The notes beneath the pieces are model-generated. The model worked only from the letters and a program-made list of their open reading frames with translations. It was not told the origin of the DNA and searched no databases. Made by a program: the position numbers and the translations under genes. 64,000 bases of DNA from Alphaproteobacteria bacterium (GTDB lineage Bacteria; Pseudomonadota; Alphaproteobacteria; UBA7879): positions 170,925-234,924 of the forward strand of contig CBCXTT010000002.1 of the NCBI GenBank assembly GCA_965178295.1, in the 5' to 3' direction. Shown in pieces: positions 4,158 to 49,691 of the stretch. Position 1 is the stretch's first letter; every line of letters starts with the position of its first letter.

Positions 4158-5572
4158 TTAAAAATGAATCGGTTGCGAAAAAGCGCCCAACGCTGCTTCT
4201 TTTAATGCCTCATTTGTTGTTGGATGTGGATGGCAGGTGCGTACAATATCTTCACTAGACGCTTCATATTCCGTGCCCAAAACAAATTCTGTAATAAGGG
4301 TTCCAGCGTTCGCACCAACAATATGTGCGCCCAAGATCCTATTTGTCTTTGCATGGGTCAAAATTTTAACAAAACCTTCCGTTAATCCGGTTGTTTTTGC
4401 ACGCGTATTTGCTCTGAACGGAAATTTCCCTACAATATAGGGTACATTTTCTTTCATCAGCCCTTGCTCTGTTTTCCCAACTGTTGCCACTTCAGGCATG
4501 GTATAAATCACACTAGGAATTGCCGCATAATTTACATGAGGGTTCTGCCCTGCCAAGTGCTCCATTAACGCAACGCCCTCTGCTTCTGCTCTATGTGCCA
4601 GCATAGGCCCAGGCACAACATCACCAATCGCATAAATCCCCATCATACTTGTGGTGTAATGTTCACCTACTTCAATACAGCCACGTGCGTTACATTTGAC
4701 ACCAACATTTTCAAGTCCAAAACCCTCTTTATACGGGCATCTCCCCGAAGCAACCAACGCAACATCAACATCTAGTGTGTCAGTTGACTGTCCATCTTTT
4801 GCATCCGCCAAGGATAATGAGACCCCTGTCTGATTCACCGTAGCCCCTATCACTTGTGTCCCCAGAACAAATGTCATCCCCTGAGTTTCCAAACTCTTTT
4901 TCAAAGAAACGCATACTTCTTGGTCCATCATAGACACAATCGTTTCATCAAATTCAATAATCGTTACATCTGCACCCAAACGCTGCCATACAGAACCTAA
5001 CTCTAGACCAATATACCCGCCACCAATGACAGCCATTTTTTGAGGAACTTCAGGTAACGATAAAGCCCCCGTCGACGACACTATACGCTTTTCATCAACG
5101 GCAACATCGGGAATACCAGCATTTTCAGCCCCCGTTGCAATCACAATGTTTCTCGATTCAATCGTATATTTTTTTCACCATGTCTCACAGTGATTTGATT
5201 AGGTGCCACAATTTCTGCATGACCCTGCATAAGGTGTACGTTATTTTTCTTCAATAAAAAGGAAATCCCCTGTGTCAGCTCCTCTACAACCTGATCTTTA
5301 AGGGCCAGCATTTTCTTGAGATCAAGGGATACATTGCTTACAACCACACCAAATTTATCTAGATAATGGGCTTCTACATATTTTTCTGAAGCATTCAATA
5401 GGACCTTTGATGGAATACATCCTATATTTAAGCACGTCCCCCCCAGTGTTGGGCGCTTATCAACACAGGCTACCTTAAAACCAAGTTGAGCACCTTTAAT
5501 GGCTGCCGCATAACCACCGGGTCCACCGCCTATTACAACAATATCAAATTTTTCCATAGTGCAGTCCCTCAT
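4158..5572 (-). CDS. lpdA: dihydrolipoyl dehydrogenase (E3), reading frame interrupted by a single frameshift in a poly-A tract
   Basis: Two overlapping ORFs. 5141..5572 is the N-terminal FAD-binding part (DIVVIGGGPGGYAAAIKGAQLG...GGTCLNIGCIPSK). 4158..5144 is the remainder (NAD-binding and dimerisation domains). They join within GTGAAAAAAATATAC, where the coding strand has a 7-nt A run. One extra A restores ...VRHGEKKYTIESRNIVIATGAEN... Confidence 0.85.
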
Positions 5573-5573
5573 A

Positions 5574-6740
5574 TTAAATGTTAAGCAAGATCCGTGACGG
5601 ATTTTCTATCAATTCTTTAACACGCACCAGAAATGTCACGGCTTCCTTTCCGTCAATCACACGGTGATCATAGGTTAGAGCCAAATACATCATCGGTCGA
5701 ATCTCTATACTTTCTCCGACAACACATGGGCGTTTATCAATTTTATGCAGTCCAAGAATACCAGATTGGGGGGGGTTCAATATAGGAGTGGACATAAGAG
5801 AGCCATATACACCCCCATTGGAAATGGTAAATGTACCGCCGCTCATATCGTCAACGGTTAAGTTCCCATTTCGGGTTTTTGTAGCCATCTCTATAAGCGT
5901 GCGTTCAATATCTGAAAAGTCCATTTTATCCGCAGCACGTACCACAGGAACCACCAGCCCCTGATCCGTCCCAACAGCAATGCAAATATTATAATAATTC
6001 TTGTAGACAATATCCTCACCATCAATTGCGGCATTAACGGACGGCACTTCACGTAACGCTTGAATAGCGGCTTTCGTGAAAAAAGACATGAATCCTAATT
6101 TCACCCCATATCGTTTTTTAAATCCATCTTTGTACTGCGACCGCATTTCCACCACTGCACTCATGTCCACTTCATTAAACGTCGTCAACATAGCTGCAGT
6201 ATTTTGAGAGTCCTTTAGGCGCTGTGCAATACGTTTTCGTAATCTTGTCATCCGTACACGCTCTTCGCGAGGTGCGGCATTAGAAGTGGAGCGCATTCCA
6301 AACAATACATCGTCTTTAGTGATCCGGCCATCTTTACCGGTTCCACAAAGAGTGTGTGTATCAAGCCCCGTTTCATCTGAAAGCTTTTTTTCTGCCGGGG
6401 ACAAAATAGGACCATCCTCTATACAAGGTGTCGTCGCCCGCGGGATGGGCGTTGACGACACAAGCGTCGAAGTTGGATCAGCAGATAATGGAACAGCGAT
6501 ATCTTGTACAGTAGTATCTAGCACACCTAAAGAGGTACCTACTTTAACAGCATCGCCCGCCCTCACATATATTTTTGTGATTTTGCCCGCAGATGGAGCA
6601 TATACTTCAATGGTAATTTTCTCTGTTTCAAGTTCTACCAAAGGCGTATCAACCGCTACAACATCACCTTCTTTTTGAAGCCATTGCGCAACCGTTGCTT
6701 CGCTAACAGACTCCCCTAATGTTGGTACTTTGATCTCCAT
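5574..6740 (-). CDS. sucB: dihydrolipoyllysine-residue succinyltransferase (2-oxoglutarate dehydrogenase E2)
   Basis: 388 aa. N-terminal lipoyl domain ([20 protein letters not shown]...), Pro/Ala-rich linker, C-terminal catalytic domain ending ...[14 protein letters not shown]. Confidence 0.9.
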
Positions 6741-21677: not shown

Positions 21678-22411
21678 GATTGCTCTCTAAAAAAAGTTTG
21701 ACCTCTTTCTAAGGCACCAGGGGTTCCAAAGTGATACCATTCCCCATCCAATACAACGCCACCTAAGCGCTTTTTTTTTTGCACCGCATCAAAAACTTTA
21801 ACGGAAGAAAAAACACCTGGATGAAACCCTTGAAAAGCTCGTGGATGAAAAATTTGTACACCGCTATAAACATAAGGAGCCGATGGAAAACGTAGACGGC
21901 GCTCAAGCAGGTCATTCTGCAAACGATAATCGCCCGCCCCATCATATCCCCATGCATTTTCTTTGGGCACCAGCAGCAGAAGTGCATCAAATTTCTGTTC
22001 ATCCCAAGCCATGTCTAGTTGGGAAAAAACAGATTCTTTAGTTGTTTTGAACACAACATCGCCGTTTACAACAAAAAACGGCTCATCTTTAAAAAACTCG
22101 AGTACTTTTAATATCCCTCCTCCCGTATCAAGGCATTTATCTTCCATGGATATTGTAACATGAGGTTTTTTAGAAGCGTGTTCCTGGATTTTCTCCCCCC
22201 AATAACAGGCATTCACCATGATTTTTTTTACTCCATACTCAGCAAGCCGATCTAACAAGCGATCCAACATACTGATGTCCCCAACCTTTAATAAAGGTTT
22301 TGGGGTATCCAAAGTTAAAGGACGCATGCGCACACCCTCCCCGGCAGCCAGAACCATTGCTTGTTGAATTTTCTTAGACATGACGATGTGCCATAGGTAT
22401 GTTTGTCTCAA
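21665..22411 (-). CDS. murU: nucleotidyltransferase, MurU-like (N-acetylmuramate alpha-1-phosphate uridylyltransferase)
   Basis: 248 aa. AMVLAAGEGVRMRPLTLDTPKPLL sugar-nucleotidyltransferase motif. Conserved position between amgK and addB. Its stop overlaps the addB start by 13 nt. Confidence 0.75.
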   Translation of the reverse strand: MRQTYLWHIVMSKKIQQAMVLAAGEGVRMRPLTLDTPKPLLKVGDISMLDRLLDRLAEYGVKKIMVNACYWGEKIQEHASKKPHVTISMEDKCLDTGGGILKVLEFFKDEPFFVVNGDVVFKTTKESVFSQLDMAWDEQKFDALLLLVPKENAWGYDGAGDYRLQNDLLERRLRFPSAPYVYSGVQIFHPRAFQGFHPGVFSSVKVFDAVQKKKRLGGVVLDGEWYHFGTPGALERGQTFFREQSCQS

Positions 22412-23832: not shown

Positions 23833-24899
23833 TGTCGTTTACCGTACACCCACATGTAATGCATTCACTAAAGGCGCTGCCTATGAAAGAACATACCACA
23901 GATATTGCCATAATTGGTGCAGGACCGGTAGGGCTTTTTGCAATTTTTGCGTGTGGCATTCTAAAACTCAACTGTCATGTCATCGATACTCTGGATGAAG
24001 TTGGTGGCCAGTGTACTGCCTTGTACCCTGAAAAACCTATTTATGATATTCCTGCGTTCCCAGAAATTTTAGCGGGAGACTTAATTGATCATTTAAAACA
24101 ACAAGCAGCGCCCTTCAATCCGACATTCCACTTAGGACAACAGGTCACACATATTTCTTCAGCGAACAAGGGTTGGAAAATCACAACATCTCAAGACATT
24201 ATCATTCACACAAAGGCCATTATTATTGCTGCTGGTGTGGGCGCCTTTGGACCCAATCGTCCGCCCCTAAAAAACTTAGAGTGTTACGAAAAATAAAAGT
24301 GTGTTTTATTAATATAAAAAACAAAGAAAAACTGTCGGGAAAAAAAATTGTAATTGTGGGTGGGGGTGATTCGGCAATAGACTGGGCCTTAAGTCTGTCG
24401 GATGTTGCAGATCATTTGCACGTTGTACACCGTCGCTCCAAATTCCGCGCAGCTCCAGATAGCGTTGACAAACTACATAAACTATGCGCACAAGGAAAAA
24501 TTACACTCGAAGTGCCCTATCAACTATATTGGACTCAAGGGAGACAACGCTGGAAATATAACAGAGGTTTGCATCCAAAATTTAGACAAAAATACAAAAA
24601 CATTACAAGCAGATGTGCTGCTACCATTTTTTGGCTTGTCTACGAATCTTGGCCCTATTGCAGAATGGGGCCTCCACTTAGATAAAAAAAATATTTCTGT
24701 TGAGCCAACAACATGCGCAACATCCACACAAGGCATCTTTGCAATTGGCGATATTGCAACATATCCAAATAAATTAAAGCTGATTGTCACTGGATTTTCC
24801 GAGGCTGCATCAGCAGCGCATTCAGCAAGAGCGCATATCTATCCAGATCAGATATTTCACTTTGAATATTCTACAACGCATGGTAAGCCGGCAGCATAA
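23832..24899 (+). pseudogene. fpr: ferredoxin--NADP(+) reductase (thioredoxin-reductase-like FNR), interrupted by two frameshifts
   Basis: Three overlapping ORFs: 23832..24296 (frame 0), 24173..24685 (frame 2) and 24402..24899 (frame 0). The sensible parts concatenate to FNR-like ...IAIIGAGPVGLFA...LECYE / KIKVCFINIKNKEKLSGKKIVIVGGGDSAIDWAL...EVPYQL / IGLKGDNAGN...GIFAIGDIATYPNKLKLIVTGFSEA.... The first shift is at the GAAAAATAAAAG run near 24288-24296. The second is near CTATATTGG around 24525-24535. Likely true start MKEH at 23883. Confidence 0.8.
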
Positions 24900-24900
24900 A

Positions 24901-25803
24901 CTAAAATACAAGCTCCGACCCTTTATAGAGCACCTCATATGCTTCAGCTGTGTATGCACCGTTACGCTCGTGTACTACTAACCCTGGATCTATCTTCAGT
25001 GGTTCCTTTGCCCCCTTGCGCGCTCGCACAATAGTGCGCTTTGAGGACACACCTTTTTTTGGCCAGAGGAGAAAAATTTCTATGCCGCCAAAGTGATATT
25101 TTTTTAAAAAAAATATCACTTCATCGAGGATAGCTGTAGGATAGATTAACGTTAAATATCCACGCGTCCTTAACATCACTTGACAGAATTTTATCCACTG
25201 CTCTAGAGACACATTGACCATTGAACGTGCTATACGCCGACTGTGTGTTTTTGCATGCGTTGCATCATAAAAATAGGGGGGATTTGTAACGATCTGATCA
25301 AAGCTATCCAGTGCAGTAGGGCTATTAATATAAGAATCTGCCACATTATGCTGAAAAAAAGCAATATACAAGTCATTGTGAGTCGCATTAAGAATCGCTA
25401 TATCTAAAAGATCGTTTTGTATCTCAACACCCACAATATCTAAGCACGCCAATCTATGCTTCAATAGAAGCGCAAGAGTTCCAACACCGCACCCCAAATC
25501 AAGAATGCGGTCCATGGGATGAGCCATGACTGATGCTGCTAAAAACACCGTATCACTCCCCGCACGATACCCATCTATGGGTTGTTGCACCGTAACTTCC
25601 CCACCTAAAAAATTTGATACATCATTCATACGTCCTACTTTTTGATAGATTTTTCTGCATTTTCCCCTATGATCAGAGGGTGTTCTTACTATATCGGTAA
25701 ATACACTAAAGGAAAAGGATGTCTGCAAGGAAGTGTCTATACATAAAAACCCTGCCTGTGCTTGAAAATCTTCAGTCCATGCTCGCACAGGATTTACAAG
25801 CAA
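24901..25803 (-). CDS. class I SAM-dependent N6-adenine methyltransferase (NPPY motif), TrmN6/YfiC-like
   Basis: Contains LDLGCGVGTLALLL (SAM binding) and VTNPPYF (N6-adenine methyltransferase motif IV). Likely true start at MNDVSNFLGG, about 25629, because the upstream part overlaps the divergent ispB start. Confidence 0.7.
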   Translation of the reverse strand: MLVNPVRAWTEDFQAQAGFLCIDTSLQTSFSFSVFTDIVRTPSDHRGKCRKIYQKVGRMNDVSNFLGGEVTVQQPIDGYRAGSDTVFLAASVMAHPMDRILDLGCGVGTLALLLKHRLACLDIVGVEIQNDLLDIAILNATHNDLYIAFFQHNVADSYINSPTALDSFDQIVTNPPYFYDATHAKTHSRRIARSMVNVSLEQWIKFCQVMLRTRGYLTLIYPTAILDEVIFFLKKYHFGGIEIFLLWPKKGVSSKRTIVRARKGAKEPLKIDPGLVVHERNGAYTAEAYEVLYKGSELVF

Positions 25804-26733
25804 TGGATGTCCTCATGCAACATCAAATGGATGCACGCGCACCACTTATAGGCACAATTACGGGCAGACTTATCCAAAGCGGGGGAAAGCGCCTTCGCCC
25901 TATGCTGACAATGGCGGCTGCGCATCACTATCAATACAAAGGAACACGGCATATCTCTCTTGCTGCATGTATCGAATTTATTCATACTGCTACTTTATTG
26001 CATGATGATGTTGTGGACGATAGCCAGAAGCGTCGTGGTCAAAAAACCGCAAACATCATATGGGGAAACAAACCGCCCATTCTCGTTGGAGATTTCTTGT
26101 TTTACACAAGCCTTTGGGCTCATTATCCAAGATGGAGACCGAGATATTCTACGTGTTCTTTCTAACGCCTCAACACGTATTACAGAGGGGGAAATCCTCC
26201 AACTTACAGCGGATGAGTTCGCAACAAAAGAAGATAACTATTGGGCAATTATTTCTTCAAAAAACAGGCGGCTTTATTTGAATCTGCTCTTCATGTGGGA
26301 GCGATTATTGGTGGTGCTAAGAAAGAGGAACAACAAGCTTTTAGTACATATGGTCATCATTTGGGGTGTATTTTTCAACTTTCAGATGATTTTCTAGACT
26401 ATTTTGGAACAAAAAATTCCCTAGGGAAAAATGCAGGGGATGATTTTTACGAAGGCAAGATTACACTTCCAGCGTTGCTAGCATATAAGGCTGGAACCGA
26501 TGATGAAAAGAGCTTCTGGACCAGAATTTTTGGAAAAACGCATGTACGCACAGCGCTTGATTTTACCCGCGCGCGGATCCCTCATGATCAAGCATCATGT
26601 GCCCGAGAAAATGCATCACAACATCACCGAGATCGCTCAAAAAGCACTGCAAGCGATTGTTGCTCTAGAGCCATCTCCCTATAAAGAAATCCTCATCCAT
26701 CTCCCAACTTATTGTAGAAACAGGAGTGCCTAG
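25719..26733 (+). pseudogene. ispB: octaprenyl/all-trans-polyprenyl diphosphate synthase, fragmented by at least three frameshifts
   Basis: Four overlapping ORFs in frames 0/1/0/1: 25719..26165, 25960..26397, 26241..26684 and 26500..26733. The pieces read ...GGKRLRPMLT...LLHDDVVDDSQKRRG (first DDxxD), ...GDFLF / TQAFGLIIQDGDRDILRVLSNAS...ISSK / AALFESALHVGAIIGG...FQLSDDFLDY (second DDxxD)... / ...KHHVPEK...[14 protein letters not shown]. Shift 1 is at TTGTTTT near 26100. Shift 2 is at the A6 run near 26255. Shift 3 is near the GCGCGCGG run around 26575. Likely start MLAQ at 25779. Confidence 0.8.
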
Positions 26734-28805
26734 CCTTCTAGCGCACCAAAAATCAAGCACTTGGTGAAACAAAGACCGCACACGCCCCAAGAGATGTAAG
26801 CGTGTCTGCGCAACTTTTATATCATCAACTATCACGACACTTTCATCTAAAAAGCGATTAATACACACACTGATCTGCACGAGTTTAGAGAGCTGTCCAG
26901 AAAGTGTGCATGCCATATAAACAGGTCCAGAGAGTTGCACGGCTAAATCTTTTTCGGCACTGTCACGCAATGCATTATCGCACATACCCGTACCATCAAA
27001 ACACACATTCTGCTTTTTTTCTATCTGGTTCAAGATATTAGAAACCCGTTTGTATGCTGTCAACACACCCACGCCTTCTGCGGTTTCAAAGAATTTTTTA
27101 GCACAGAAAGTGCGTTGGTCATAACATAAAAGTCCACCATTTCTGAGTGATTTAATACACTCAATATATGGTCATAACGGTAGCCTTTATCTTTCATATA
27201 CACATGAAAACGATCTTGTAAAAATTTCCACAGAAACGCTAACGTCTTAGCCTTCTCTTGTTTTCCAGGCACATTAAGCTGATCATAGGCAAAATTCATG
27301 GTTTGCTTTATATCAAGAGACCATTTATTCTCAATCAGCAAACGTAGACACCCTAAGGCCGAACGACGCAAGGCAAAAGGATCTTTAGAACTAGTAGGCA
27401 TGATCCCAACACTGAAAAATGCAATCAACGTATCCAATTTATCGGCAAGCGCCAACACCCGGCTTGACGGTGCGTTTGGACAAACATCGCTCGGTCCTTT
27501 AGGAAAATAATGTTCGCGAATTGCAAGAGCCACATTGTCAGATTTCCCCTGTGCAATTGCATAATAGCATCCTGTGATACCTTGCAATTCTGGAAACTCT
27601 CCAACCATGGCCGTTGCAAGATCTGCCTTGCATAAACGAGCGGCTTCTTCCGCATCTTCAAGTTCTGGAGCTATATTTTGAACCAGCCTTTCCAAGCGCG
27701 TGACCTTTTCTAGCATCGTTCCTAACTGAGCATGAAAGGCTTGTTGTTCTAAACATGCACTCCAAGTGTCAAGGGTGCGCTTTTGATCTTGCTTCCAAAA
27801 AAATGAGGCGTCGGCAAGGCGTGCGGTAAGTGTTTTTTCATTTCCCCGGATAATTTGTTCCCCGCCATCCAGCGCTACCATATTAGAGACGAAGAAAAAA
27901 TAGGGTGCAAGTCGGCCATTCTTTTTTGTTGCAAAACACTTTTGATGTGTCCGCATACTCGTCACCAGAATCTCAGCTGGAAAAGACAAGTATTCTTGTG
28001 AAAAATGCCCCCTGAATATCACGGGCCACTCAACTAGCCCTACCACCTCTTCCAACAATTGTTCATCAAGAACAACGTCAAGATTTGCAGACGCCGCATG
28101 CGCTTCCAACTGGATCCTCACATCATTCCGACGTGCATCTTGATCAATTATCACATATGCAGAGGCGAGTTGTGTTTTATAGGCGTCAAAAGTCCGTACG
28201 GCAAAGGATTTTGGTGCCAGAAAACGATGCCCCATTGTTATATCACCCACAGTAACATGGGGATGCGGCGCATCAAGTGGAATGATTTCTCCATCAAAAA
28301 CAGCCAGCAGTGATTTCAGAGGGCGTACCCATTTAAAACTCGACGCCCCCCAGCGCATGGATTTAGGCCACTTAAAAGAGCGCATCAACCCAAACAATAC
28401 CTCTGAGAGCAAAGCGCTAGTAGCAATACCACCCTGGACACTGGGAGCGAAAAAAAATGTCCCCTTTTTTGGAAGCTCTCGCGTCTTTAGGTCATCCATG
28501 GTCAGGGCCGTTGACGATAAAAAACCCTGAATCGCTGCATCAGATGCCTTAACACTTGGTCCTTTGAGTTCTATATATTTCTTGGGCTGCATTGTTGGCA
28601 AACCTACAACATGTGCAATGAGCCGCCGCGGCGTCGTATAAATATTCATGCCATCATACGGTAGATTATATGAATCCAAAGCCGAGACAAGCCTTTCTTT
28701 AAGCTGAGCCCTTGCTCCAGGTTGCATACGTGCGGGCATTTCCTCAGACAATATCTCCATAAAAAACTCAGCCATCTCGATCCTCGTGATCCTTCCAAAG
28801 CGCAC
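26665..28805 (-). CDS. glyS: glycine--tRNA ligase beta subunit, interrupted by one frameshift near an A6 run
   Basis: ORF 27060..28805 (581 aa, GlyS N-terminal and central regions) plus ORF 26665..27072 (135 aa, C-terminal [11 protein letters not shown]... region). They overlap by 13 nt. The join lies at or next to GTGCTAAAAAATTC (27090-27098 on the + strand). Likely true start [14 protein letters not shown] at 28775, forming an ATGGCTGA overlap with the glyQ stop. Confidence 0.88.
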
Positions 28806-32386: not shown

Positions 32387-33505
32387 TCAAGGTACACAAT
32401 AAACAGCCGAAGAAGGAATATAGCGATGACAAATAGCCTCTGCAAAACCCTTTTCCTGCAGCCTCAAAAGACTATGGTTTATTTTCTCTTTATACGGACT
32501 CCCCTTTGGCAAGGAAAAAGAGACTTCGTCAATCGCAAGCCGTATATCAGAGACTTTAAGGGCGAAATTTTTATGCTCTTGCACTTCTTGCGCAAGAGAT
32601 ACGTAGTCATCGATTACAACATCCACCTCCTGAGTGTGAAGCGCCTCTATAGCCGCATCTAATGTTTCGTAAGAGATCACTTTTGCAGTTGATCGCTTCG
32701 CTATTACAGCATTCTCTGAACCCCGTACAACCCCCGAGACCATATCCTGTAAATCCTCAATGTTTGAAATTGTCTGATTATTGTAGCTATACAAGGTAGA
32801 AGATAAAGCACTTGTAATCATACCAAAAAAACCCGATACAAAAACGAGTGATACAATAAGCCAAAAAGCCATAAAAACTCGCGCTTGGGGCCCTTCTGGT
32901 CTGTATAAAACTTTGATTTGAATAAGGCGCGCAAACATAAACCACATACTGTCGCCAATACCTCGAAAATACCTTGTGCTGATTTCAGGAGCATGCCATC
33001 TGTAAAAAAACCAATACACATGCGCAGCAACAATAAAGAAAATAGCAATAATAAAGAAACCGACCTCACCCAATTTTTTCATAAATATGTGTAATGCATC
33101 TAAAAAACCTAAATGAATCTCATGAAACGCCACACCTATTTGCTCAATAAAAAAAGGGCGCGTAAAGTCCAAGCGTGACAGCCTATCTCGTGTAGCAGAA
33201 ACAGGGCCAAGAACGAGATCAATGTGACCGTTTTCAAGAGACTCCAGAGCTGAGGAAATATTAGAACCAAGAGATGTAAGGGTATAGGACAATTGATTGT
33301 CCTGCGCAATTTCGTCCCATATGTCAATTGCAAATCCAGAGGGAATGTCTGAAGAAAGAAAAGAAAACGGTTTATGGTCAACGTATCCAACACGCACATC
33401 AATAGCACACAGAAAAGTGGGCCAGAGAAAAATAATGATAAATCGCTTGATCACGTTATTATGCCTCCCTTCTTTCATTTGATCTTCCTTAAAAAAATCT
33501 GTCAA
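32387..33505 (-). CDS. ionotropic glutamate receptor-like ligand-gated channel (GluR0-type: periplasmic SBP lobe 1 - M1 - pore loop - M2 - SBP lobe 2)
   Basis: 372 aa. Signal/TM segment first, then an SBP_bac_3-like lobe (VRVGYVDHKPFSF...GHIDLVLGPVSATRDRLSRLDFTRPF). Next comes TM VGFFIIAIFFIVAAHVYWFF, then a pore-helix-like FRGIGDSMWFMFARLIQ (compare iGluR SLWFSLGAFMQQG), then TM VFMAFWLIVSLVFVSGFFGMITSALSS (compare iGluR M3 ...ISSYTANLAAFLT). A second SBP lobe follows (…VDVVIDDYVSLAQEV...SFSLPKGSPYKEKINHSLLRLQEKG). No TVGYG K+ filter and no M4. Probable true start at MKEGRHNN. Confidence 0.7.
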   Translation of the reverse strand: MTDFFKEDQMKEGRHNNVIKRFIIIFLWPTFLCAIDVRVGYVDHKPFSFLSSDIPSGFAIDIWDEIAQDNQLSYTLTSLGSNISSALESLENGHIDLVLGPVSATRDRLSRLDFTRPFFIEQIGVAFHEIHLGFLDALHIFMKKLGEVGFFIIAIFFIVAAHVYWFFYRWHAPEISTRYFRGIGDSMWFMFARLIQIKVLYRPEGPQARVFMAFWLIVSLVFVSGFFGMITSALSSTLYSYNNQTISNIEDLQDMVSGVVRGSENAVIAKRSTAKVISYETLDAAIEALHTQEVDVVIDDYVSLAQEVQEHKNFALKVSDIRLAIDEVSFSLPKGSPYKEKINHSLLRLQEKGFAEAICHRYIPSSAVYCVP

Positions 33506-33587
33506 GCAAACTTTTTAGACGCGTCGGCATGTTTTACACGTATACTAGAAAAGAGTCACATGGTCACGATGTAAAGTTTAAGAGCTG

Positions 33588-35531
33588 ATGATACGCCTTG
33601 CATACCTCATTCTGTTTTATTTCATAGCATGCGCATACAGCACAAGGGCGGAGGACATACCAAGTACATGCATTCAAGCGCTGAAACACACACTGAACAA
33701 CACACACATGCCTCAAAAAATTCCTAAAAATTGTAAGATTGTTGGCGATTTTCTTGCCTGGTATCAATATCAAGAAACTACAAAACATAATGATTTTGAT
33801 AAAATTATGTTTTTTATTCATACACATCCATCTTGGCCCAAGATAAAGGTGTTGCAACAGCGAGCCGAAGAAAGTATCGCCAGCACAACTTCTTCTAGCA
33901 CAATTATTCGCTGGTTCATGCAGTATACACCAATTACAAGTGTCGGCAACATCCACTATGCACATGCATTGCTACAATCTGGAAAAGAAGTGGAAGCAGT
34001 AATACAAATTAAACACGCCTGGCGCAAGCAACAGATGACACAAAAACAACAGAAATTCTTCTACCAGAAATATAAGAAGTACTTAAATACGAAAGATTTA
34101 ATGCATCGGCTTGAAACACTTGGATGGAGCAGCAATAGCAAAGGCATATATGGCCTTAAAAGCTACCTAAGTGCAGAGATTCAAAATTTAGCACTCGCTC
34201 TGATTGGATTAATACAGCGTGAAAGCAACATTGATATCCTCATCAAAAAAGTTCCCTCGCGATATCAACACCATCCTCTTCTACTATTTCACCGCATTAA
34301 ATGGCGCCTTAGACATAAAAAATATGATAGCGCGCTTGCATTAATGCACAAAGCAATCACAGAAAAAGCAGATACAGCGAATCCTGCTGCCTGGCTGCAA
34401 ATTCGGCGCACACTATATCGCTACTTGCTGAAAAAAAAACAGTACAAAGAGGCCTATCATATCATACAGCATCATGTAGAAAAAGACCCAAAAGCAGTGG
34501 ACTTAGAATGGTGTTCTGGCTGGATTGCCTTAAGATTTTTAGACGATCCAGAGCGTGCAAACACTCATTTTCAAAACGTCTATTATATAGCGACAACACC
34601 CATAAGCCAGGCCAAGGGATGTTACTGGGTCGCTCAAGCACAAAAAAAAATGGGAAATATTCAAGCGTATAAGGACTGGCTGAAAAGAGCGAGTAATTTT
34701 TACATTACGTTTTACGGTCAGCTAGCGCAACAAGAGCTTTACGGGAAGATTTCCATTACGCTAAAAGAAGGCATATCTGCAAAAAACTTAAATCACTTAT
34801 GGGATGAGTATATCAATCTTTTCTCTGTACTAAAAAAGTGGGAATTGAGTCGCCATATAAAACCTTTTTTACTCCACATGGCGCATGCATCAAAATCACC
34901 ACAAGATCAGGAGTTTGCAGTTAAAATGGCGGCACAATATGCGCCAGAGTTTATAGTACTCACAACAAAAGTTGCAGGACGCAAGGGTATGATCCCACTG
35001 GATATTACATTCCCAACATTAACATTACACCAGATCCCCAAAAAAATACCCGTCGATCTAGCCGTTATACATGCTGTTATTCGCCAGGAGAGCGGATTTG
35101 ATCAATATGGAACCAGTCCTGCCGGTGCACAGGGTTTGATGCAACTGATGCCAGAAGTCGCCAAAAATGTTGCACAAAGATGGAAGATACCCTTTACAAA
35201 AGGCTGTCTCCATAACGCTTCACATATGAATGTACAGATTGGAAGCACCCACATGGCGGACTTACTCAAGACTTTTGAAGGGGATATTATTCTCTCCCTT
35301 GCAAGCTATAATGCCGGTCTTAGTAATGTGAAAAAATGGATTAAACACTATGGAGATCCACGAAAAAATGTGCATATATTGGATTGGATTGAAACAATCC
35401 CCTTCAAAGAAACGCGTTCATACATATATCGCGTTTTAGAATCTGTCTCTATTTATGAAAGTATGCTTAATACGAAGAGTCCACATGGTGTTTCTTCGCT
35501 AAGAATGCCCAGCCTCGAGAAAACAACATAG
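33588..35531 (+). CDS. slt: soluble lytic murein transglycosylase (Slt family)
   Basis: 647 aa. Signal peptide, superhelical repeat region, and a C-terminal SLT catalytic domain (VIRQESGFDQYGTSPAGAQGLMQLMPEVAKNVA...ASYNAG). Confidence 0.85.
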   Translation: MIRLAYLILFYFIACAYSTRAEDIPSTCIQALKHTLNNTHMPQKIPKNCKIVGDFLAWYQYQETTKHNDFDKIMFFIHTHPSWPKIKVLQQRAEESIASTTSSSTIIRWFMQYTPITSVGNIHYAHALLQSGKEVEAVIQIKHAWRKQQMTQKQQKFFYQKYKKYLNTKDLMHRLETLGWSSNSKGIYGLKSYLSAEIQNLALALIGLIQRESNIDILIKKVPSRYQHHPLLLFHRIKWRLRHKKYDSALALMHKAITEKADTANPAAWLQIRRTLYRYLLKKKQYKEAYHIIQHHVEKDPKAVDLEWCSGWIALRFLDDPERANTHFQNVYYIATTPISQAKGCYWVAQAQKKMGNIQAYKDWLKRASNFYITFYGQLAQQELYGKISITLKEGISAKNLNHLWDEYINLFSVLKKWELSRHIKPFLLHMAHASKSPQDQEFAVKMAAQYAPEFIVLTTKVAGRKGMIPLDITFPTLTLHQIPKKIPVDLAVIHAVIRQESGFDQYGTSPAGAQGLMQLMPEVAKNVAQRWKIPFTKGCLHNASHMNVQIGSTHMADLLKTFEGDIILSLASYNAGLSNVKKWIKHYGDPRKNVHILDWIETIPFKETRSYIYRVLESVSIYESMLNTKSPHGVSSLRMPSLEKTT

Positions 35532-42597: not shown

Positions 42598-42651
42598 TAC
42601 TATGCAAGATAGCGCAACTATGCAAGATAGCGCAACTATGCAAGATAGCGC
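42598..42651. repeat. 18-bp tandem repeat x3 (ACTATGCAAGATAGCGCA), in-frame within a small ORF (MQDSAT x3)
   Basis: Three perfect 18-bp units at 42598-42651, then a degenerate fourth (CAAATACAAGATTGT). Confidence 0.9.
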
Positions 42652-42763
42652 ACAAATACAAGATTGTATGAATGCTCTTGAAAATCGTGTTTTTATACTT
42701 ACACAAGCCGCCTCTAGTAATAACGGCGCTCTACGTGTGCACCAAATGTGGTCTCTGCAGTAA
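42601..42763 (+). CDS. hypothetical small protein (about 53 aa) with N-terminal MQDSAT hexapeptide repeats
   Basis: The first canonical ATG lies inside the repeat. The ORF reads MQDSATMQDSATMQDSAQIQDCMNALENRVFILTQAASSNNGALRVHQMWSLQ*. There is no obvious SD. A second mini-ORF starting ATGCAAGAT (MQDAGAARR...) lies at 44292..44420 and is followed by a hairpin plus T-run. Confidence 0.2.
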
Positions 42764-48774: not shown

Positions 48775-49691
48775 AGAAGCATATACTTCTATGCGCTTTT
48801 TTTTTGGTGTCCGCATCAATTAATGCATCGATAGCACCCCTTTCTTCTCCTCTTAGAGCAGTTGCAACATTTAGCATTTTAGCGGATTTTGTGAAACAAG
48901 TAGGGCGTGAGCATGTAGTTGTGTCGATTGTTGGACCTAATAGCGATGCACATATATATGAGCCAACACCACAGGATGTCAGAATCGTAAGCGCAGCAGA
49001 TATAATTTTTACAAATGGATTCGGTTTTGAAGGTTGGCTGTCGCGCTTAATAGAGACGTCAGGCTGCAAGGGCAAGATAGTGGTTGCGACAGAGGGCATT
49101 ATACCAAGACTCTTAAATGATCCTGATGAAGGTGTGGTTGAGGATCCGCACGCCTGGCATGACGTTATGTACGTTAAGCGATATATTCAAAATATACAAA
49201 AGGCATTGTCAACAATAGACCCAGAGCGTCGTGATATCTATGCAAGCAATGCAGTCGCTTACTTGAAGGAACTTGAAGATTTAAATCAAGAAATTATACA
49301 ACAAATAGAAGAAATCCCCCCTGAAGCACGGACAATCATTACAGCGCATGATGCATTTGGATATTTTGGTGCGCGTTATGGCATTAATTTCTTGGCACCT
49401 GTCGGTATTAGCACAGAAGCAGAACCGTCTGTTCAAGATATTGTTCGCCTTATTCAAATGATTCAGGCTCACAATATTAAGATGATATTTGTTGAAAATA
49501 TTTCCAACCCTAAAATGATCCATCAGATTGCTGAAGAAACGGGCGCTTTCGTGGGAGGAGTTCTGTATTCTGATGCCTTGTCAGACACACATGAGCCAGG
49601 GGCAACGTACTTAAATTTAATGCGGCACAATGTACATCTTTTTGTATCATCGATGCGAGGAGGTACGCCAAAAAGCTACAGGGAATTTTAG
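48771..49691 (+). CDS. znuA: metal ABC transporter periplasmic substrate-binding protein (ZnuA/MntC/TroA family)
   Basis: 306 aa with a signal peptide (MKKHILLCAFFLVSASINA) and a cluster-9 SBP fold. Start overlaps the znuB stop by 4 nt. Confidence 0.85.
   Translation: MKKHILLCAFFLVSASINASIAPLSSPLRAVATFSILADFVKQVGREHVVVSIVGPNSDAHIYEPTPQDVRIVSAADIIFTNGFGFEGWLSRLIETSGCKGKIVVATEGIIPRLLNDPDEGVVEDPHAWHDVMYVKRYIQNIQKALSTIDPERRDIYASNAVAYLKELEDLNQEIIQQIEEIPPEARTIITAHDAFGYFGARYGINFLAPVGISTEAEPSVQDIVRLIQMIQAHNIKMIFVENISNPKMIHQIAEETGAFVGGVLYSDALSDTHEPGATYLNLMRHNVHLFVSSMRGGTPKSYREF

Follow-up and report, generated by a model that had tools for sequence, protein, structure and literature searches.

The glyS gene, which encodes the beta subunit of glycine--tRNA ligase (GlyRS), is broken in the deposited sequence of the 64-kb window (the whole stretch of DNA that was analysed), and the question is whether this break is an error of the assembly, a frameshift tolerated through slippage, or a genuine mutation. 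A sequence-only reading of the same DNA had set artefact against tolerated slippage. This was the right question to pose; however, slippage gains no support from our analysis, and the evidence favours the artefact. We conclude that the break in glyS is probably a local consensus error in the deposited assembly.

The gene lies directly downstream of glyQ, the stop codon of which overlaps the start of glyS, and this position within a conserved neighbourhood agrees with the assignment to GlyS (Table 1). The glyQ product is 83% identical, over residues 1-285, to its counterpart on L001, a Logan contig of a relative with a GlyS that is 57-60% identical to that of the window. The part of glyS that precedes the break spans the domains B1, B2, B3 and HD and reaches into the beginning of the anticodon-binding domain; it aligns gap-free to residues 1-563 of the GlyS of L001 with 60% identity, while the segment past the break is 43% identical to residues 560-675 of the same protein. 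The frame break that had been noticed beside the A6 run is real as a feature of the deposited sequence: glyS changes frame at 27094-27099 and resumes in another frame, with TIGR00211 matched at positions 1-567 and then at 576-681. Chance plays no role here, since the orthologue is clear and the break in its frame is deterministic. It should be noted that the distance of 13 nt that had been given between the break and the stop of the long ORF corresponds to the region shared by two mechanical ORFs, bounded by the GTG at 27072 and the last base of the stop at 27060; the break is indeed upstream of that stop, yet 32-39 nt away from it.

The A6 run belongs to the motif GTGCTAAAAAATTC, which is present in the deposited glyS. 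Addition of one A (A6 to A7) restores the reading frame and gives a gap-free alignment with all homologues examined. We also shifted the missing base step by step along 27149-27062, and the protein resulting from each placement was scored against a hidden Markov model built from 119 homologues. The score was maximal in the A run (838.5-839.7 bits, compared to at most 836.4 bits elsewhere), suggesting that the A run is the best site for the missing base; the site is modestly resolved, with a margin of 2-3 bits and a resolution of approximately +/-15 nt. Other types and placements of the lesion, namely a deletion of 2 nt or the loss of one base close to CCGCAG, further downstream, had lower scores against the homologue profile and were rejected.

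Table 1. Positions of the genes, frame breaks and related features discussed in the text (strand given relative to the forward strand of the window).
Feature	Position	Strand	Observation
lpdA	4161-5605	-	isolated lesion at A7 run (coding strand), 5169-5175; lipoamide_DH profile split 1-127 / 129-461
Fpr/thioredoxin-reductase-like flavoprotein	23883-24899	+	three single-base insertions; repaired: 337 aa, no stops
Fpr-like gene, lesion sites	A5 24289-24293; T4/TT 24304-24310; TT 24529-24530	+	
Methyltransferase	24901-25803	-	intact amid the frameshift cluster; matches the gene of the relative
ispB-like octaprenyl-diphosphate synthase	25719-26733	+	three to four single-base indels; repaired: NF008140 3-316 of 323
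ispB, lesion sites	T4 26100-26103; A6 26259-26264 with or without GG 26267-26268; C3/CGCG 26566-26577	+	
Second glyS ORF, 135 aa	26665-27072	-	TIGR00211 576-681; -1 frame relative to the long ORF
Spurious 29-aa C-terminal extension from the T5 lesion	26665-26729	-	no counterpart in any homologue compared
Natural glyS stop TAG	26730-26732	-	repaired reading frame; reached only after T5 is changed to T4
T5 run on the coding strand (A5 on the + strand)	26748-26752	-	second glyS lesion, one extra base; T4 gives the conserved end VLDFGALEG followed by the stop
glyS segment past the break, -1 frame	26753-27093	-	C-terminal anticodon-binding (DALR-like) helices; TIGR00211 576-681
Out-of-frame tail of the long glyS ORF	27060-27093	-	stop TGA at 27060-27062; same bases coding in the correct frame
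Long glyS ORF, 581 aa	27060-28805	-	TIGR00211 1-567 of 684
A6 run (T6 on the + strand)	27094-27099	-	first glyS lesion, one base missing; peak of profile score
In-frame part of glyS, from ATG at 28775 to the A run	27094-28775	-	approximately 562 native residues; TIGR00211 1-567
glyQ, glycine--tRNA ligase alpha subunit, 289 aa	28768-29637	-	intact; NF006827 464 bits, TIGR00388 448 bits

The gene had been described as interrupted by a single frameshift, and a second lesion, in the T5 run at 26748-26752, was overlooked. With the deposited T5, the last five residues of GlyS after ...VLDF are replaced by a 29-aa extension. The C-termini of the closest relatives are ...VLNFDVLEG and ...LNFDALEG, and most distant homologues end in ...F/L-x-x-[IVL]-EG, with the exceptions of P0004 (...NFGALV), P0005 (...NFGELV) and P0011 (...EV). 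As deposited, therefore, glyS is not a single uninterrupted frame but is broken by two single-base lesions (27094-27099 and 26748-26752), and its match to TIGR00211 (PF02092 and PF05746) is split. With both repairs, the gene occupies 26730-28775 and encodes 681 aa that match TIGR00211 end to end, in one stretch over profile positions 1-684 of 684, with 673 bits (cut-off 300).

Could the first break be a real frameshift that is corrected in expression, either by -1 ribosomal frameshifting at the A6 run or by RNA polymerase adding an A within it? The zero-frame heptamer, A_AAA_AAT, fits the X_XXY_YYZ pattern, and a -1 shift on it would yield exactly the correct GlyS protein; to this extent, the site resembles those of the dnaX type. 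However, it differs from the dnaX type in having neither a downstream stem-loop, nor an upstream Shine-Dalgarno-like stimulator, nor conservation in relatives. The 103 nt downstream of the A6 run have a minimum free energy of -20.2 kcal/mol, where shuffled sequences average -19.7 kcal/mol (z = -0.16), indicating no stimulatory structure; the 20 nt upstream of the heptamer contain no GGAGG/AGGA element; and a search of Rfam returned no known frameshift element. The A-site codon that is efficient in bacterial -1 frameshifting is AAG, whereas the glyS site has AAT. Furthermore, the motif itself is uninformative: the intact genes, 49.5 kb in total, contain 40 A_AAA_AAN heptamers in frame, and 15 of these are AAAAAAT. 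Nor is the frameshift conserved, as GlyS is uninterrupted both in L001 (680 aa, with A4 at the homologous site) and in a second relative, L038 (679 aa, with A3); these are the closest relatives, with 57-60% amino-acid identity.

For transcriptional slippage, it is pertinent that insertions in transcripts favour A/T homopolymers (PMC5574713), and that the poly(A) rescue described for Blochmannia and Buchnera likewise concerns an essential information-processing gene with a one-base indel in an A run and no other degradation (PMC3017870). The rescued genes of these endosymbionts, however, carry single indels in tracts of at least 9 nt, one lesion per gene, conserved across populations or species (PMC3017870), whereas the run in glyS is 6 nt long, a second lesion is found in a 5-nt run, and the relatives are intact. 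Genome-wide, indels arise in transcripts at approximately 1e-5 per nt, with an exponential increase as runs become longer, and no frame-restoring case was observed in Buchnera (PMC5574713). In addition, the second lesion of glyS and the three to four lesions in each of the neighbouring genes described below require deletions at short, non-slippery runs, which no single mechanism provides. Rescue of glyS by slippage is thus unsupported, and we find it hardly credible as an explanation of the locus.

The next question is whether a genuine frameshift at this position would destroy the gene. It had been taken for granted that it would create a null, and this does not necessarily follow. The break aligns to residue ~569/570 of E. 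coli GlyS, and the deposited long ORF ends within approximately six residues of the end of EcGlyRS575 (PDB 7EIV), an E. coli beta subunit cut at residue 575 and devoid of the 114 C-terminal anticodon-binding residues, which expresses well and assembles into an active heterotetramer with normal activation of glycine and a reduced level of tRNA charging (Ju et al., PMC8464048). Because the break falls near this end and the truncation is tolerated in vitro, the essentiality of glyS discriminates less between artefact and biology than had been claimed. A recent genuine frameshift could accordingly have left a hypomorphic beta subunit, truncated before the last anticodon-binding helices, and the missing domain might be supplied in trans by termination-reinitiation at GTG/GTG/TTG (27061-27072). 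These three codons are in frame within 13 nt of the stop of the long ORF, and AAGG is located 7 nt upstream of the second GTG; however, this context is ordinary coding sequence (E-G-V-G-V-L).

Selection on the segment past the break was assessed by the ratio of identities of the C-terminal and N-terminal parts around the break, compared to 20 outgroups. This ratio is 0.66 for the GlyS of the window, versus 0.65 and 0.64 for two intact sister lineages, so in this comparison the segment past the break shows no extra divergence. Such conservation is what continued use of the segment predicts, and thus it is also compatible with a truncated but functional subunit. Nevertheless, EcGlyRS575 was engineered for crystallisation and charges tRNA at a reduced level, and a natural GlyS that is split or truncated was not found among the 119 other homologues listed, all of which are 673-730 aa long. 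The T5 lesion, moreover, would leave the putative stand-alone anticodon-binding domain with a scrambled C-terminus, and truncation leaves unexplained the three to four lesions in each of ispB and the Fpr-like gene, which occupy non-boundary positions within the same 2.8 kb. We therefore consider a genuine truncation of the beta subunit to be unlikely. A three-piece GlyRS, consisting of the alpha subunit, a beta body that stops at the position corresponding to E. coli residue ~570 and an anticodon-binding module translated on its own after a restart at GTG/TTG, would be a natural counterpart of EcGlyRS575, and it appears very unlikely.

The neighbours of glyS were compared to the proteins of the relative using tblastn and a frameshift-aware dynamic-programming alignment to the window. 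L001 has the same gene order as the window (OPT, glyQ, glyS, polyprenyl synthase, methyltransferase, Pyr_redox, tsaE, APH, NTP-transferase, addB, addA), and every gene in it is intact; the genes of L038 are likewise uninterrupted and have the same syntenic order. In the window, glyQ, OPT, tsaE, APH, NTP-transferase, addB and the part of addA that is present on L001 are intact besides the methyltransferase. Two further genes of the cluster, ispB and the Fpr-like reductase, are frameshifted repeatedly, with the deposited ispB truncated at 149 of approximately 337 aa. The alignments by tblastn pass through stops in one frame, which raised the possibility of an alternative genetic code; this was rejected, as the apparent stops are out-and-back frameshifts, with conserved middle segments in another frame. 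In both the Fpr-like gene and ispB, the middle segments that are out of frame retain an identity of 52-71% to the relative when read in the original frame. The mechanical ORF of the methyltransferase (300 aa, TTG start) extends approximately 58 codons further upstream than the 242-aa homologue, and the true start is probably near 25629.

The sequence-only reading had proposed glyS as the best single indicator of whether the local frameshifts are artefacts. If the lesions are real, both ispB and the Fpr-like gene would be true nulls, and three to four separate shifts in a single gene are beyond rescue by any slippage mechanism; therefore, glyS does not hold this rank. The better indicator is ispB, together with lpdA, and the three lesions of the Fpr-like gene are a stronger test as well. 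Real loss of ispB and lpdA is biologically implausible, because the machinery that depends on them is intact in the window (sucA, sucB, COX3, SURF1 and ATP synthase). The frameshift in lpdA stands alone, 19 kb away from the main cluster of lesions, in the gene directly downstream of the intact sucA and sucB.

Taken over the whole window, the lesions have a uniform character. All of them are exactly 1 nt in size, six to eight of the nine to ten are insertions, and most are found in short runs of 2-5 nt. Of the ten lesions in the 64 kb, nine are confined to 2.8 kb (24294-27094); the naive binomial probability of such clustering is 6e-12, and the observed count was reached in none of 200,000 simulated placements. 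Within this interval, the lesions form two bursts (24294-24530 and 26100-27099), including two pairs that are 16 and 7 nt apart. Approximately 40 other genes of the window are intact, as judged by a single-piece full-profile match in Pfam or by synteny, the exception being lpdA; those intact by Pfam include sucA, sucB, typA, hemB, smpB, valS, gltX, znuABC, COX3, SURF1 and atpHAG. There are 70 homopolymers of at least 7 nt in the window, and the only one at a lesion is the run in lpdA. The longest runs, T10 at 21771-21780, A9 at 34431-34439, A9 at 34642-34650 and T9 at 48797-48805, lie inside the coordinates of ORFs that read intact; thus, the places most prone to slippage or miscalling leave the frame unbroken. 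As the long runs elsewhere are correct, the problem would be one of local quality rather than a systematic homopolymer bias. The GC content of the lesion cluster (0.422) is nearly equal to that of the whole window (0.428), ruling out an anomaly of composition, and repeat-mediated misassembly was rejected since no significant direct or inverted repeats are present in 22-30 kb.

Real decay of the gene has to be considered too, the more so as the window contains long stretches that appear to be gene-less. Approximately 3.3 kb at 41.1-44.4 kb have no coding signal in six frames (codon-usage log-odds) and no Pfam matches at E <= 1, and no Rfam matches at E <= 0.1 were found in 41.0-44.5 kb; an 18-nt tandem repeat, ACTATGCAAGATAGCGCA, is present in this stretch in approximately 3.7 copies (42599-42664). 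Non-coding DNA of this length is unusual in a bacterium, and the stretch could be an old decayed gene region. A shorter stretch of approximately 1.3 kb between typA and hemB (13.2-14.5 kb) also has no coding signal and no family matches (Pfam E <= 1); the same-strand ORF fragments in it have implausible translations rich in Cys, His and Arg. Such stretches may be compatible with a host-restricted genome that is capable of real decay, and as hints of a decaying genome they also speak for a genuine truncation of the beta subunit. Elsewhere in the window, a 375-aa protein encoded on the minus strand (32390-33514) combines a solute-binding fold of the periplasmic type (SBP_bac_3) with the pore of a ligand-gated ion channel (Lig_chan, Lig_chan-Glu_bd), and is a GluR0-like homologue of prokaryotic glutamate receptors.

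If glyS were genuinely decaying, with glycine charging taken over by a second glyS or by an alpha2-type GlyRS encoded elsewhere, then glyS, ispB and the Fpr-like gene would all be real pseudogenes, and a gene that is already dead would be expected to accumulate several hits. Among the real inactivating mutations of decaying host-restricted genomes, in addition, single-base indels in homopolymers are the commonest, which counts against an artefact. On the other hand, glyQ is intact immediately upstream and well conserved, and the locus is the ancestral syntenic site. There is no second copy of glyS in the 64-kb window, and no second close GlyS from the same assembly was found in a collection of 5.8 billion proteins, which holds the proteins of this assembly. 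In that collection, the 571-aa truncated GlyS and the products of glyQ and tsaE occur once each, on one NCBI contig only, and the next-best GlyS is 57% identical. A search for an independent sequence of the organism gave best matches of 41% identity among genome contigs and at most 43% among metagenome contigs, and none of them represents this organism.

Other marks of a pseudogene are absent from the three genes. The repaired frames of glyS, ispB and the Fpr-like gene contain no in-frame stops and no larger gaps; nonsense codons, deletions of more than 1 nt and excess divergence were not found, and the alignments at the junctions are gap-free. Real decay would be expected to have left nonsense codons and deletions too; this expectation depends on the substitution-to-indel ratio of bacteria in general rather than of this lineage, and this is a caveat on the case for an artefact. 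Natural decay in bacteria is usually deletion-biased, whereas the lesions of the window are mostly insertions. Decay of glyS is, in our judgement, quite unlikely.

The artefact is favoured because the lesions are clustered, are 1 nt in size, are mostly insertions in short runs and are accompanied neither by other damage nor by relaxed selection, and because the relatives are intact. From the type, position and clustering of the lesions, the intact rest of the window and the lack of signs of decay or recoding, we infer a technical cause, as far as sequence comparison can indicate one. The pattern of locally clustered single-base lesions in otherwise conserved genes is that of indel errors in draft and long-read assemblies (annotated as 'frameshifted'), in which single-base errors, mostly in homopolymers, are clustered in housekeeping genes and conservation is intact after repair. 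It should be noted that nanopore data typically show deletions in long runs, whereas the lesions of the window prefer short runs and insertions. A plausible course of events would be that errors of base calling or of the consensus occurred in two short bursts, for example in a thinly covered or single-read patch; A6 would have been written where the gene has A7, and the T5 at 26748-26752 would be a second error of length. The organism itself would then most likely have an ordinary intact GlyS of 681 aa, and its ispB and Fpr-like reductase would be intact as well.

If the lesions are artefacts, the region of 24.3-27.1 kb of this assembly is unfit for calling pseudogenes, recoding or gene fission, and the truncation of annotated proteins such as the 571-aa 'GlyS' in public collections is itself artefactual. 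Should the lesion in glyS be real, the bacterium would be viable with a GlyRS beta subunit that has no covalently attached anticodon-binding domain, and the in-vitro result obtained for the E. coli enzyme would be extended to nature.
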